From Podarcis erhardii (taxonomy: Eukaryota), in NCBI GenBank assembly GCA_964252035.1, contig OZ176202.1: a DNA stretch of 64,000 bases; one strand, given 5' to 3'. Of the stretch, positions 24,536-51,927 are shown piece by piece. A model generated the notes under the pieces. It had not been told where the DNA came from, did no database searches, and saw nothing but the letters and a program-made list of their open reading frames with translations. How positions within the stretch are numbered: the stretch's first letter is position 1; every line of letters starts with the position of its first letter. Made by a program: the position numbers and the translations under genes.

Positions 24536-24766
24536 CAGTGGTACCTCGGGTTACATACGCTTCAGGTTACATACGCTTCAGGTTACAGACTCTGCTAACC
24601 CAGAAAGATTACCTCAGGTTAAGAACTTTGCTTCAGGATGAGAACAGAAATTGCACAGCGGCGGCGGGAGGCCCCATTAGCTAAAGTGGTGCTTCAGGTT
24701 AAGAACAGTTTCAGGTTAAGAACAGACCTCCGGAACGAATTAAGTACATAACCAAAGGTACCACTG
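24536..24766. mobile_element. Tc1/mariner-type MITE, same family as 4287
   Basis: TA|CAGTGGTACC...GGTACCACTG|TA. Confidence 0.88.
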
Positions 24767-24845: not shown

Positions 24846-24873
24846 CAATGGTGCCCCGCAAGACGAATGCCTC
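24846..24873. mobile_element. Left end of a Tc1/mariner-type MITE split by the Gypsy insertion
   Basis: TA|CAATGGTGCCCCGCAAGACGAA matches the inverse of the right TIR TTCGTCTTGCGAGGCACCACTG|TA. Confidence 0.88.
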
Positions 24874-25472
24874 TGTGATGGCCTGGGATTCCGATTCAGA
24901 GGATGAACCAGAGGAATCCCAGCCTGCACAGGAGTCCCCGCCTCCAGGGCCGGCTGAACTGGGGCAAGGCCTAGATGCTGAAGAGCCTGCACCTGTGACA
25001 GAGCATCAGGAGCTGGCCCCAGGTGAAGCCCTTCTGGCCCCAGAGGGGCTTGACGACTCAGTGGCCACAGGTGAGCCTCCTCCAGGGCCCAGTAACCCTT
25101 CGGCCTCTCCTGATCTGCAGAGGCTTAGGGCAGAGAGGCGAAGGGAACTGGTTGCCCCCAGGAGGAGTGCTCGCCTTAAGGCCAGAGGAGGCGGGGCTCC
25201 TGGGGGTCGGGACCGCCCCCGGCCTTAGAAGAGGATAAAAGCCCAGTCAGCCTGGCCCCAGGTTGCGGGAGCAACGTCGTTGTTGGCTTTGGACCTTCCT
25301 GTGTTCCTGATCCCTGCTTGGCCTCCTGTTCCTGACTATCCGGTGTTCCAGTTCCCAGCTCGGCCTCCTGTTCCAGCGTACCTGTTCCCCGCCCGGCTCC
25401 CCGTCTTGGACCTCGCCCCTCTTCGTGTGGACTCTGCTTACACCCACGGTACCTTCCCCCGGGACCAGCACA
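24874..25472 (+). repeat. 5' LTR (599 bp)
   Basis: TGTGATGGCC...GGGACCAGCACA; no difference from the 3' LTR found by eye. Confidence 0.96.
25233..25241 (+). promoter_or_regulatory. TATA-like box of the LTR (GGATAAAAG)
   Basis: Only A/T-rich stretch in the GC-rich LTR; about 30 nt upstream of the inferred start site at 25265. Confidence 0.7.
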
Positions 25473-25474
25473 GT

Positions 25475-25484
25475 TTGCTCCCGC
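25475..25484 (+). promoter_or_regulatory. Self-priming primer-binding site TTGCTCCCGC
   Basis: Starts 2 nt after the LTR end; exact reverse complement of LTR 25265-25274 (GCGGGAGCAA); no TGG-type tRNA PBS. Confidence 0.8.
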
Positions 25485-25535
25485 CACACCCGCACTCCCC
25501 CTTAGTTGGGGTGCGTTCGGGAAGAGCCAGAGGCC

Positions 25536-28500
25536 ATGGCTGACCAGGCGGCTGCGCTGGTGGCATTGGCCCAGGAAAACCAGGCCTTGACCCACACCGT
25601 TCAGCAGCTAAGCGATGTGGTTGCGGCGCTTCAGCAGCGGTTGGAAGCCTTTCCAGATCCTGGGGCCGACGCCCTAGCTCCAGGCAAGTACCCAGTGGCC
25701 TTGCCAGAGAAATTTGATGGGACCCAGGCCAGTTTTCCCATGTTCCTCGCCCAGGCCAAGTTGTACATTCAGGGGCGAGCCCGGAACTTCCCTGACGACC
25801 GCACCAAGGTGCATTTTTTAATCAGTTTGTTAAAGGACCAGGCGGCCAAGTGGGCTTTGCCACTGCTCCGGCAAGACTCTCCTTTGCTAACGGACTATGT
25901 GGGGTTTTGTAACCACTTAGAGACTGCGTTTGGTAACCCACTGAAGGAGAGCCAAGCCAATCGGGCGATTCGTCGGTTGAGACAGGACAAGTCCACAGCC
26001 GCCGCCTACGCCACAGAATTTCGGCTGTTGGCACAAGACTTGTCTTGGAATGACTCTGCACTACGGGACCAGTATCTTGAGGGACTGTCGGACGAGATAC
26101 TGGACCAGTTGGCCATGATGGATCGTCCCACCACACTGGATACCCTCATTCAGCGGAGCCTGCAGATAGACGATCGGTTGGAGGACCGTCGCCAGACCCG
26201 AGACCGCCAGCACTCCCGACTCCTGGCGCCAGTCCTTCCCAGCAGGTCCACGCCCACAGCCGAGTTGCCAGTCGAGCCAACGCCGCTCGGGGCTGCGCGA
26301 CCTCGGCTCTCCCCCTCGGAGAAGTCGCGGCGTCGGGAGGGGAACCTGTGCCTTTACTGCGGTGGGGGTGGACATTACGCCCGTTCCTGTCCCGAGAAGC
26401 TACCAGTCGCAGGGAAACCGCCAACCTCGGTAGCCGAAGGCCCTAGCAACGTGGGGTCCCAAACCATGCAAGAAGGGCCCTCACCAGTAGAATTGCGACA
26501 TCTCATGGTACCGGTGCGTCTCTACCCTCCAGGTGGGCCCTGGATTCTTACCCACGCTTTGGTAGATTCGGGGGCAACCCGCTCCTATATGGACGCTGCC
26601 TTTGCCGCGCATCATCAGGTGCCACTTCAGAACAAGCCAGAACCGGTACAGGTGGAGGCAATTGACGGACGGCTCCTGCGTTCGGGTGCCGTCACTCGGG
26701 AGACCCAGCCCTTGGTCCTGTGTCTCCAGCAGCACCGGGAGGTGCGAACCTTGGACATTGCCTCCATGCCCCGGTTCCCCCTGGTGCTCGGAATGGACTG
26801 GCTAGAGGCTCACAACGTTCAGATTGACTGGGTCAAACGGACCGTACACTTCCCAGATCCATGTTCCCATGCTCAGTCGCAGATGCTAGCGGCCGCACCC
26901 ACGGAGGAGGCAGCACCCACGCTCCCAGCCGTGTACCGGGACTACCAAGACGTGTTCGAGGAACGGGGGGCAGACCAGCTGCCGCCGCATCGGTCTTTTG
27001 ACTGCGGCATAGACCTCCAGCCCGGAGCGCCCCTACCGGTGAGTCGCTTATACTCTCTAACAGAGCCAGAGCGCGAGGCTTTGCAGGACTTCTTGCGCAA
27101 GAACCTGGAGCGTGGGTTCATTAGGCCTTCCACCTCGCCTACTGCGGCACCAGTGCTCTTTGTTAAGAAGAAATGTGGGGAACTCCGTCCTTGCCATGAT
27201 TACCGAGCCCTAAACAAAATCACCATCCCAGACCGGTACCCCTTGCCCCTTATTTCGGAGTTGCTGGAGCGGGTGCAAGGGGCACAGGTGTTCACCAAGC
27301 TGGACCTCCGGGGGGCCTACAACTTGATTCGGATCCGAGCCGGGGATGAGTGGAAGACAGCGTTTGGGACCCGGTACGGGCAGTTCGAATACTTGGTTAT
27401 GCCTTTTGGTTTATGCAACGCGCCTGCTGTGTTCCAACGCTACATCAACCACGTGTTCCAGGATTTGTTAGACAAGTACGTGGTGGTGTACTTGGATGAC
27501 ATACTGGTTTACTCCCGTGACCCGGCTCGCCATGAGGGACATGTCCGGACCGTGCTGCAGCGCTTGCGTGAGCACCGTTTGTACGCAAAGCTCAGCAAGT
27601 GCGAGTTCCATCAGCGGACTGTGGACTTCCTTGGTCACCGGCTCTCTCCAGATGGGGTGCAGATGGACCCTGGGAAGGTGGCAGCGGTTTGAGAATGGGC
27701 GGCACCCCGGAACCGCAAGGACCTACAGCGTTTCCTGGGGTTCGCCAACTACTACCGGACCTTCATCGCAGATTATGCTCAGCGCACCACCCCGTTGACC
27801 CGGCTACTGCGCCCAAAGACGCCGTTTTCCTGGGACGAGGAGGCAGAGGAGGCGTTCCAGGGGTTGAAGGCCTGTTTCCAGAGGGCGCCGATCTTACAAC
27901 ATCCTGACCCCTCTCGACCCTTTGTGGTGGAGACCGACGCCTCCAGTACGGCTCTCGGTGCCGTCTTGTCTCAACAGAATGGACCTGAAGCGCCACTCTT
28001 GCCCTGTGCCTTCTATTCCCGCCAGCTCCTACCAGCGGAGCGTAACTATACTGTGTGGGAGCGGGAACTACTGGCCATCAAGGTGGCCTTTGAGGTCTGG
28101 CGCCACCATCTTGAGGGGGCACGACATCCGGTGGAGGTGAGAACCGACCACCGGAATCTGGAGTACCTCCAGACCACCCGCAAGCTGAACCAAAGACAGA
28201 TCCGGTGGGCGTTGTTCTTTTCCCGGTTCCAGTTCCGGATCCGCTATATCCCTAGCTCTCAGAACCAGAAGGCAGATGCCCTGTCCCGGAAACCTGAAGA
28301 CAACGCAGACACGGTACAGCAAGCAGAACCCACCACGATCCTACCTCCAGCTGCGTTCCTGGCCACCCAGGAGGCGGAACCACTGCAGGCTCGGGTGCGG
28401 GAACAGCAGCGGGTCGACGCTTGGGCCCAGGAACGACTCCGGGAGCTGGCTGAAGGGTCCAGCCCACAGTATCCGGGGCTGGTCCTGCATCAGGGCCTTC

Positions 28501-30209
28501 TGCTGCACCACGGCCGTCTGTACATCCCGCCAGGGCCACTGCGGCTGGAGGTTCTCCGGATGGCCCATGATGCCCCAGCAGCGGGGCACTTTGGACGGTA
28601 TCGGACCACCCATCTGGTCAGTCGTGAGTTTTGGTGGCCCCGCCTGAAGGCCGACGTGGCTCGCTACGTTGCTGGTTGTGATGTCTGCCGGCGCGCCAAG
28701 GGTCCTACCGGGCGACCCCCCGGCCTACTTCAGCCATTGCCAGTTCCACCGCGCCCTTGGCACACGGTTTCATTGGACTTTGTAGTGGACTTACCCCCGT
28801 CTCGTGGCTGTACCTGCCTTCTAGTGTTCTCCGACCATTTCACCAAGATGGTGCACTGCACCCCCTGCCCATCTGTACCCACAGCCAAGGAAACCGCTCA
28901 GCTGTACCTTCAGCATGTCTTCCGCCTGCATGGCCTACCAGAGCGCGTGGTGTCCGACCGGGGCGTTCAGTTCACATCCCGGTTCTGGCGAGCATTACAC
29001 CAGACCCTCGGGACAGAGGTCTGCCTCTCGTCAGCCTACCACCCACAGACCGATGGCCAGACGGAACGGGCGAACGCGGTGCTGGAGCAGTACCTCCGGT
29101 GTTACTGCAGCTACCAGCAGGATGACTGGGTCGACCACCTGGCATTGGCGGAGTTCGCCTACAACAACGCGGTGAATGCATCCACCCAGCAGACCCCGTT
29201 CCAGGCCAGTTACGGTTATCATCCACGGCTGTTTCCAGATGTGCTGCCGGCATCCGCAGTCCCGGCGGTGACGGAGTGGCTTCAAGAGCTCCAGTCCCAG
29301 CAACAGCTTTTGGTGGAGCAACTGCACCAGGCCAAGGAAGCGTACAAAGCCCAGGCCGACCGCCACCGCCAGGTGGGGCCGGAACTTCGCGTCGGTGACC
29401 TGGTTTGGCTCTCCACTCGCCACCTCCACCCCTCTCGACCTTCGCGGAAGTTGGACGCCCGCTTCAACGGCCCGTTCCCTATCGTGGACCAAGTCTCTCC
29501 TGTAGCATTCCGTCTCCGGTTACCCGCAACCCTGAAGGTTCACCCGGTCTTCCACAGGTCCCTGCTGAGTCCGGTGGCCCCACCCGACGAGTTCCACCCG
29601 AACCGTCCCCGTCCGCAGCCAGTGTTGGTTCAGGGAGAGCCTGAGTATGAGGTGGAACGCATCCTGGACTCCCGATACCGCAGGGGAAAGCTGCAGTATC
29701 TCATTGACTGGAAGGGGTATGGACCGGAGGACCGTTCCTGGGAACCAGCGGCCAACGTCCACGCACCTGCCTGCCTCCGAGAGTTCCATGCGACGTACCC
29801 CGGCAAGCCGGGTCCGGACCCTCGGTTGAGGGGGGGGCCTGGGAGGGGGGATGGTGTGATGGCCTGGGATTCCGATTCAGAGGATGAACCAGAGGAATCC
29901 CAGCCTGCACAGGAGTCCCCGCCTCCAGGGCCGGCTGAACTGGGGCAAGGCCTAGATGCTGAAGAGCCTGCACCTGTGACAGAGCATCAGGAGCTGGCCC
30001 CAGGTGAAGCCCTTCTGGCCCCAGAGGGGCTTGACGACTCAGTGGCCACAGGTGAGCCTCCTCCAGGGCCCAGTAACCCTTCGGCCTCTCCTGATCTGCA
30101 GAGGCTTAGGGCAGAGAGGCGAAGGGAACTGGTTGCCCCCAGGAGGAGTGCTCGCCTTAAGGCCAGAGGAGGCGGGGCTCCTGGGGGTCGGGACCGCCCC
30201 CGGCCTTAG
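25536..30209 (+). pseudogene. Single-frame gag-pol polyprotein (1557 codons) broken by one in-frame TGA at 27690-27692 (codon 719)
   Basis: GCCATGG start; PEG10/RTL-like capsid (PEKFDG...DDRTKVHFLISLL), CCHC knuckle CLYCGGGGHYARSC, protease LVDSGAT, RT YLDDILVY, RNase H VETDAS/DHRNL, IN HHCC and DDE, chromodomain EYEVERIL...IDWKGY...SWEP. Track ORFs 25506-27692 and 27795-30209 share one frame, and EWAAPRNRKDLQRFLGFANYYR follows the stop directly. Confidence 0.93.
29841..29851 (+). promoter_or_regulatory. Polypurine tract GGGAGGGGGGA
   Basis: Purine run ending 3 nt before the 3' LTR; also inside the pol reading frame. Confidence 0.85.
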
Positions 30210-30453
30210 AAGAGGATAAAAGCCCAGTCAGCCTGGCCCCAGGTTGCGGGAGCAACGTCGTTGTTGGCTTTGGACCTTCCTGTGTTCCTGATCCCTGCTT
30301 GGCCTCCTGTTCCTGACTATCCGGTGTTCCAGTTCCCAGCTCGGCCTCCTGTTCCAGCGTACCTGTTCCCCGCCCGGCTCCCCGTCTTGGACCTCGCCCC
30401 TCTTCGTGTGGACTCTGCTTACACCCACGGTACCTTCCCCCGGGACCAGCACA
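29855..30453 (+). repeat. 3' LTR (599 bp)
   Basis: Direct repeat of 24874-25472, followed by TSD GCCTC. Confidence 0.96.
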
Positions 30454-30458
30454 GCCTC

Positions 30459-30768
30459 GCAAGACGAAAAACCCGCTAGACGAAAGGGTTTTCCGTTTTG
30501 GAGGCGCTTCGCAAAACGAATTTCCCTATGGGCTTGCTTCGCAAGACGAAATGTCTTGTGAGTTTTTCCGACTTTTTTCCCCTCCCCCCCCCTTTTTCTA
30601 AGCCGCTAAGCTGCTTATCCGCTAAGCTGATAAGCCGCTAAAAGCCGCTAAAAGCCGCTAATAACGCTAATCTGCTAAGCCGTCAATGGGCTTGCTTCGC
30701 AAGACGAAAAAACCGCTGGACGAAGAGAATCGCGGAACGGATTCTTTTCGTCTTGCGAGGCACCACTG
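30459..30768. mobile_element. Remainder of the split MITE (about 338 bp when rejoined), with internal GCCGCTAA repeats
   Basis: Continues ...GCCTC|GCAAGACGAA; ends ...GCACCACTG followed by TA. Confidence 0.88.
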
Positions 30769-50855: not shown

Positions 50856-51420
50856 TTACAAGGTATAATCCTGGCAGTTAGAGTCACTTTTCTTATGCCG
50901 TGGGGAAACTGCTGTCTTTGTAGGTGATGGTGAAGCTGCCCCAGATGTTTCAGAAGCTCCTTCCACAATACTTGGTGAAGACACCAGATGAGGTGCTTTC
51001 TTCCTCCCCAGGAATCCTCCTCCTTCAAACCCACTTTTCTTTTTATTGTCTGCTTTGGCTTCGTTTTCTTCATCAGTTCCTCGTTTCTTCAACTCCAATA
51101 CATTTTCGGGCACTTTCTGACCATCACTTGCCCCATCTGCTGCTCTGGTAGCTCTTATCTCAAGTGCTGCTATTGAAGCCCTTTTGTCAGTTATGTTTTC
51201 ACCTGTCCTCTTCACTTCTGTCTGTACAGGACTCTGGTTGCCATTCTGAAGAATACCTCTGTCTGCCATAGTTTTGTTCAAATTAAAAGCCTGGATCTCT
51301 CTGTAGCTGTGAAAACTCTCTGTCCGCCGTGCCCTGGCTAATAAAGGGCTCTCCCTATATGGCCGTATGGAACCATATGTAGTGGTTTCGTGGATCATTT
51401 CACGGTGTTGCAACTGGAGG
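50856..51420 (-). CDS. KCTD3: KCTD3 last coding exon (human exon 18 equivalent)
   Basis: Minus-strand ttttcag| acceptor at 51421-51422; YGSIRPYRESPLLARARRTESFHSYR...GFEGGGFLGRKK...SPRHKKSDSNCQDYTL*. Confidence 0.95.
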
Positions 51421-51927
51421 CTGAAAATATTTTATATGCATGAGTAAGAGCACCAGTATTACTGAACACAGTCACACTGAACAGATACCACAAGCAAGAA
51501 ACAAGGTATTCTCCTTTTCGAGCATCTATGGTGCTGTTGCTTGTGATGTTACCAGAGCTATTCCACACAAAGATAGTGGAATTTAATGTTAATGGGGGAA
51601 AGTATCTGATCTTTCTGGGAGGCACTTATTTTGCATATTTAACAAAAATGAAACTTGTAACCTTTTGATAGTTTGCAGCTGACTGTACCAAAGGAGACTT
51701 CTCTGGCTGATATCTACATTATTAGTCACATTGAAGAGTAGATCCAGTAAAAATCAATGAATCTGAGTATGCCTCATGTTGGCTATCACTTTCTGTAACA
51801 TGCAATTCTAACAGGGAACCACCATGTCTAAAAAAAATCCAAGTCTCAAAATGTTTAAAGTACTGAATGAAGATTTGGATTACAATTTACCAGCCAGTAC
51901 AAACATGCACATGTGGCAAGGACATAC

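Follow-up and report, generated by a model that had tools for sequence, protein, structure and literature searches.

The window, the whole 64,000-nt stretch of Podarcis erhardii DNA analysed here, carried on its + strand the exons of a fibronectin-III-rich gene (fn3; 3368-41364), which we take to be usherin (USH2A), and on its - strand a gene with an exon at 50856-51431. A 5.6-kb retrotransposon lay in an intron of the fn3-rich gene in the sense orientation. It was nested in a short inverted-repeat DNA element with TA ends (24846-30768), and a second such element adjoined (24536-24766); both are presumably MITE-like and of the Tc1/mariner type. The retrotransposon is a young Tf1/sushi-type chromovirus of a lacertid lizard, and its features were as follows.

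24869-24873, no strand: left copy of the 5-bp target site duplication (TSD); the same five bases stand at 30454-30458
24874-25472, + strand: 5' LTR, 100% identical to the 3' LTR over 600 nt
25265-25274, + strand: predicted self-primer, about 30 nt past a TATA-like box at 25234 and complementary to 25475-25484
25475-25484, + strand: primer binding site (PBS) of the self-priming (Tf1/sushi) type
25536-26390, + strand: gag, with capsid and CCHC knuckle (26349-26390); Pfam PF19259, PF03732, PF16297
26397-26402, + strand: stretch that is one base longer in the window's family than in its frameshifting sisters (alignment)
26412-26418, + strand: relic slippery heptamer GGGAAAC, out of slip phase (read GGG AAA C)
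26425-26456, + strand: weakened stem 1 of a predicted stimulatory pseudoknot (26425-26434 with 26446-26456); constrained folding -6.0 kcal/mol
26431-26433, + strand: relic gag stop TAG, now in the +1 frame, homologous to the GNRQPQ* stop of copies L039 and L061-L081
26439-26479, + strand: predicted stem 2, which still pairs (26439-26444 with 26474-26479); duplex -12.1 kcal/mol, both strands also coding G-P
26559-27689, + strand: protease and reverse transcriptase, in frame with gag; PF08284, PF00078
27690-27692, + strand: premature stop, private to the window copy (locus comparison)
27693-30209, + strand: RNase H, integrase and chromodomain (about 29646-29789), the frame entering the 3' LTR; PF17917, PF00665, PF00385
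29855-30453, + strand: 3' LTR, with the polypurine tract just before it

The LTRs, the 5-bp TSD and the polypurine tract were all present, and Pfam analysis gave the domain order gag-PR-RT-RH-IN with a C-terminal chromodomain, which is that of a chromovirus. The 10-nt complementarity between 25265-25274 and 25475-25484 corresponds to the self-priming PBS arrangement of the Tf1/sushi group given in the available text of PMC10085805, the transcript start being a prediction only. The gag shared 36-44% identity with PEG10, and placement in the group relies on gag similarity, domains and PBS. The best named gag relatives were models from Podarcis muralis and P. lilfordi, followed by marsupial and placental PEG10. 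The premature stop sits between RT and RNase H and differed in 27 of the 28 other loci reaching that position among the matches listed; given this private stop, the window copy is probably inactive on its own.

Several other properties of the element were recorded. The pol frame stays open past the chromodomain (29790-30209) and extends into the 3' LTR, which adds about 120 acidic, proline-rich residues, and a variable G run ahead of the polypurine tract alters this C-terminal tail between copies. A 42-nt tandem unit in the LTR (25292-25374, 30273-30355) differs in copy number among copies. In an RNA run with another species label (X23), LTR-like reads covered 24874-25470 at 85-99% identity and the internal region was hardly covered; depth at the gag-pol junction was almost zero in the roughly 12% of the run that was read.

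The original prediction described a fossil frameshift signal of the PEG10 type just after the CCHC knuckle. GGGAAAC was indeed found at 26412-26418, separated from the knuckle by 21 nt; it occurs once in the 4.3-kb coding region, and its chance occurrence within a 30-site stretch was estimated at about 0.002. The translations bore out both reading frames that had been described. The gag frame reads G-K-P-P-T-S-V across the heptamer (GGG AAA), which is the post-shift frame, and continues unbroken through protease and RT (ORF 25506-27692), while the +1 frame reads GNRQPR* and ends at the TAG of 26431-26433, whose bases encode V-A in the pol frame. The identification of G-GGA-AAC with the PEG10 heptamer agrees with the available text of PMC11299033 and PMC13622457, in which the PEG10 signal is GGGAAAC with a structure 5-8 nt downstream. 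The layout of a -1 frameshift, with X XXY YYZ in gag phase and pol in the -1 frame, was absent from the window's family, and gag and pol formed a single ORF as in a Tf1-type element. Within 150 nt of the junction no XXXYYYZ in gag phase occurred in this family.

Copies with the window-type fused junction were designated family A. A flanking-pattern search of the genome gave 136 family A matches, and all 100 of those listed shared the junction length of the window, so that the fusion, which had been left as either family-wide or copy-specific, proved to be family-wide. Searches of family A for a shorter junction, or for junctions 3-18 bases longer, gave no matches; young canonical copies inside the family were thus not found at these lengths, nor, for junctions one base longer, among the 100 matches listed of 136. 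The heptamer was altered in 4 of the 100 listed copies, and the old stop was retained in all 100. A lesion specific to the window copy was ruled out, the 30 fetched loci (that of the window included) being free of junction indels. An assembly error was likewise ruled out for this family by the 136 genomic matches, by public-run contigs under three organism labels that aligned without gaps over the junction (X1, 26166-26449; X4, 26229-26540; X6, 26254-26415) and by the P. muralis model P0083, which reads the junction as the window does.

Family A was recombinant when compared with L105 over 25531-29730. Lineage B showed 74-88% identity to it over gag and the junction and 96-100% from about 26930, and the switch from divergent gag and junction to lineage-B-like pol was located near 26700-26930. 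Between A gag and the gag of sister lineage K, dS was 0.77 and dN 0.09; dN/dS of A gag was 0.12-0.14 against B and K. Against older fused relatives, dS of family A was 0.15-0.32, with dN/dS of 0.22 and 0.39, and 1.0 for a third, degraded copy. L198 (G000:C19:6974093), a degraded copy whose gag groups with that of A, had a junction four bases shorter than that of A, with the heptamer in slip phase and a stem of -18.2 kcal/mol; it may represent either the ancestral state or a regained frameshift.

The canonical layout was found in lineage K. A pattern common to all relatives gave 358 matches, and a hand tally of the first 100 listed comprised 21 canonical copies, 34 of A, 40 of B or B2, and 5 others; all 79 non-canonical junctions among them were one base longer. 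All 81 matches of lineage K were listed; 55 were canonical, 26 were fused, and none had another junction length. In the canonical copies (L039 and L061-L081 among them) the heptamer is in gag phase, gag ends soon after as GNRQPQ*, and a long pol frame follows in the -1 frame, so that these copies would make Gag plus a minority of Gag-Pol by -1 frameshifting. Seven proteins (P0002, P0067-P0069, P0075, P0077 and P0079) end in GNRQPQ, and the frameshifting layout also occurs in P. muralis gene models. Long snake and fish proteins (P0087, P0088, P0090-92) are gene models without DNA and were excluded from the assignment of junction states. L080 and other K copies carry a second in-phase heptamer, GGGAAAT, in gag, 52 nt ahead of the knuckle end.

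Since related families keep heptamer and stop in this layout, a chance 7-mer, which would have undone the original prediction, does not account for the signal. With sisters one base shorter and canonical, the proposed one-base insertion that fused gag to pol and left a relic signal was also upheld. Its suggested place was not: A26411 had been offered as an example of the extra base, and alignment to frameshifting sisters and older relatives puts the gain within 26397-26402. Taken together, the interpretation as a fossil frameshift signal was supported.

In canonical copies a hairpin is predicted 6 nt past the heptamer at -17.3 kcal/mol, and only 4 of 850 windows of the element were as stable. 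Its loop can pair with bases about 20 nt downstream, giving an H-type pseudoknot layout, so that K has, as a prediction only, a structure at the 5-8 nt spacing. The GC-rich stems described downstream of the heptamer held in part: in the window itself folding was not significant (z = -0.57), where the strong stem of the sisters survives only in weakened form. Folded under the constraint of an open loop, stem 1 gave -15.7 kcal/mol in canonical copies, -15.2, -13.1, -9.8 and -7.3 kcal/mol in four older fused relatives, and -6.0 kcal/mol in family A, in which no stable structure 5-8 nt downstream was obtained. A decay of stem 1 after fusion is predicted for family A from these models. In lineage B, B2 and the fused K type G the stem is intact (-18.3, -16.0 and -15.7 kcal/mol). 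Rfam gave no match to a frameshift family; its two hits, both to miRNAs (E 0.76 and 4.6), were put down to chance.

Lineage B had its own fusion. It gave 146 matches, and 97 of the 100 listed were fused through a base past the heptamer, the other 3 being canonical; the extra base was present in contigs of X1 and X6 and in P. muralis models P0006 and P0084. The heptamer of lineage B, B2 and type G is still in slip phase, with a stop eight codons further along the -1 frame, so that a -1 shift would now yield a short Gag. The signal is accordingly predicted to be reversed in these elements, with a shift giving Gag and straight translation giving Gag-Pol.

For lineage K, the 81 pattern matches and 2 copies missed by the pattern (83 in total) were aligned to one real copy over 366,794 aligned nt. 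From gag start to chromodomain 27 one-base insertions were found, all at +9 to +26 past the knuckle and none elsewhere; the remainder of the span had 6 private one-base deletions and 4 longer deletions. Outside this span the leader was one base longer in 5 copies, and an 8-G run past the chromodomain varied both ways (11 insertions, 8 deletions). P-values for the clustering of insertions were not relied on, as they ignore that insertions elsewhere cannot spread.

The +1 types of K had linked SNPs in common as well as later substitutions, and therefore were copied. Types E, G and C each occurred on at least two local haplotypes, some of them identical to haplotypes of canonical copies, which indicates that fusion needs no prior adaptation. 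Site -415, which is nearly confined to fused K copies, is synonymous and so reflects no compensating Gag change. In the pol tree, which omits the short or rearranged copies L091, L106, L112 and L120 and places L125 on an artefactual long branch, A and B formed clades of their own. About five or six fusion events would be needed in K, in addition to those of A, B and the separate branches L087 and L117; recombination softens this count of origins, for which the four distinct gain sites set the floor. Both states, fused and frameshifting, were found among copies 89-99.5% identical in one genome. Among the pairs L063/L064, L190/L191 and L103/L125 are tandem copies about 5 kb apart that seemingly have a common LTR, and an A copy and a B copy that face each other on C1 near 67.27 Mb.

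Most LTR pairs were 99.5-100% identical in A, B and K. Open reading frames for both gag and pol were present in 15 of 21 copies of A, 14 of 24 of B and 14 of 22 canonical ones, and shared variants had pN/pS of 0.12-0.34 with small counts. Pairwise dN/dS of pol against L082, L092 and L087 was discarded because their frames were broken. These sequence measures were taken to show that fused elements kept copying. Canonical copies were equally recent, which means that a donor of Gag coexists in the same genome. Within K, identical LTRs were found in 15 of 27 fused and 15 of 51 canonical copies (p = 0.03), and open frames in 25 of 27 fused and 41 of 56 canonical copies (p = 0.046); this comparison weakly supports a recent rise of fused copies.

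The explanation we favour, and hold to be fairly probable, is that the junction is a relic of a PEG10-type -1 frameshift switched off by the gain of one base, and that the family likely makes Gag-Pol only, with spare Gag likely coming from frameshifting relatives. The gain would have put gag in the pol frame and so ended frameshifting, leaving family A to translate only Gag-Pol, while free Gag would be supplied in trans by frameshifting relatives active in the same genome. Fused copies could gain from this, as each ribosome would deliver RT and integrase, and the probable reason why fusions recurred is that fused copies, able to borrow spare Gag, spread well. A supply in trans is favoured by the spread of fusions in K with no amino-acid adaptation seen and by the coexistence of equally young frameshifting copies. 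Frameshifting in the sisters, the advantage of fused copies and the supply of Gag in trans are all things we infer, and mixed capsids of A and K are an assumption, the gag of A being far from that of K at the divergence given above. A bolder version, in which frameshift-loss cheaters arise repeatedly and outcopy their parents on the parents' free Gag, with one lineage reversing the signal, is put forward tentatively.

Fused elements might instead be autonomous in the manner of Tf1, with the protease cutting one polyprotein and surplus Pol being degraded or tolerated, so that frameshifting is dispensable. This seems to us somewhat unlikely, though single-ORF elements clearly exist: Tf1 and Tf2 are of this kind in the available text of PMC10085805, post-translational degradation is cited as a route to excess Gag in that of PMC3735527, and the Anolis element Gypsy-15_Ano, a proxy of PEG10, is described in that of PMC11011659 as having no frameshift. 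Fused copies also made up about 84% of the A, B and K copies counted, and family A appears to have been fused for a long time under purifying selection, which suits autonomy equally. Indirect arguments stand against it: a young lineage that is active in this genome still has the frameshifting layout, as do P. muralis models; a dispensable signal should lose its strong stem; and Tf1/sushi elements outside yeast predominantly frameshift (PMC10085805, available text). It is quite improbable that the family has a hidden source of spare Gag in cis, whether a spliced or prematurely polyadenylated RNA or a non-canonical shift that reaches the old stop. Splicing is used by BARE1 and copia (PMC3735527, available text), and the retention of the old stop in all 100 listed A copies could be read in this way, but in the pol frame the stop bases specify V-A, and copies this young have not had the time to lose the stop. 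AATAAA and ATTAAA are absent from the element, and a simple motif scan gave no donor-like site within 600 nt past the knuckle. Since the A junction is without an in-phase heptamer or a nearby donor-like site, and the element without a canonical poly(A) hexamer, production of Gag-Pol only is the likely outcome.

The recurrence of fusion could also reflect a mutational hotspot, with polymerase slippage beside an RNA or DNA stem followed by tolerance and no advantage of fused copies. In vitro, reverse transcriptase slips and adds bases both beside structured template and at the shift site of HIV (PMC5737552 and PMC5737442, available text), and the gains here sit in short runs (AAA, GGG, CCCC). 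Yet 230 other runs of at least 3 bases had no one-base gain, the 8-G run past the chromodomain excepted; two entire lineages are fused; and a polymerase making the minus strand would already have passed the stem on reaching most gain sites. Among 81 K, 100 listed A and 100 listed B copies, neither a private -1 nor any other junction length was found, which also speaks against a hotspot. The lack of -1 copies shows only their inability to spread and not that +1 is favoured. We regard this explanation as unlikely. An assembly error or a chance 7-mer is hardly credible: several +1 types lie in homopolymer runs, and no insertion of type E or G was among those listed for short-read contigs, which drop rare variants, but the window type was ungapped in contigs of all three public runs, the +1 types are SNP-linked with later substitutions, and A and B form their own clades.

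Single-ORF members of the group, splicing, degradation and borrowed Gag are already known; the recurrence of fusion in one genome appears to be new. In the accessible open literature, to which Repbase and subscription journals do not belong, neither a relic signal nor a gag-pol shift turned into reverse was found to be reported, nor a frameshift lost repeatedly inside one genome, and the literature searched linked the host factor Shiftless to no retrotransposon. If the bolder version is true, the transition from frameshifting to a single ORF has been caught at every stage in one vertebrate genome. Copies about 99.5% identical and differing by one base at the junction are natural near-isogenic pairs, and the genome also holds a long-fused lineage in which the signal is decaying and another whose signal would run in reverse; the cost or benefit of frameshifting can therefore be tested directly on natural sequences. 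The genome further provides living frameshifting relatives of the PEG10 ancestor, the ancestor having been inferred in PMC11011659 (available text) with an Anolis proxy that lacked the shift. One consensus per family hides such junction polymorphism.

The lizard signal resembles the -1 signal of PEG10 (and of RTL3 and PNMA3/5) in GGGAAAC and the downstream structure, with a spacer of 6 nt in the lizard sisters. PEG10 proteins end gag with GN plus 4-5 residues (GNSPAPL), and the sisters with GNRQPQ. Unlike PEG10, which is a domesticated gene, the lizard element is mobile, and the window copy combines a weak stem 1 with an out-of-phase heptamer. In bacterial dnaX, a one-base change can swap which product needs the shift (PMC5009743, available text); this role reversal matches the predicted gag-pol layout of lineage B and type G but not that of the window's family. 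BARE2 is a successful element that depends on the Gag of its relative BARE1 (PMC3735527, available text); BARE2 is without Gag, whereas in the lizard family Gag is intact and only its free form would be short. With sushi-ichi, Tf1/Tf2 and Gypsy-15_Ano the element shares the chromodomain integrase, the self-priming PBS and the CCHC gag of the Tf1/sushi group, whose strategies are given as a -1 shift, readthrough or a single ORF (PMC10085805, available text). Whereas the accessible literature on this group describes one state per family, the lizard genome holds both states, with several separate transitions visible between them.
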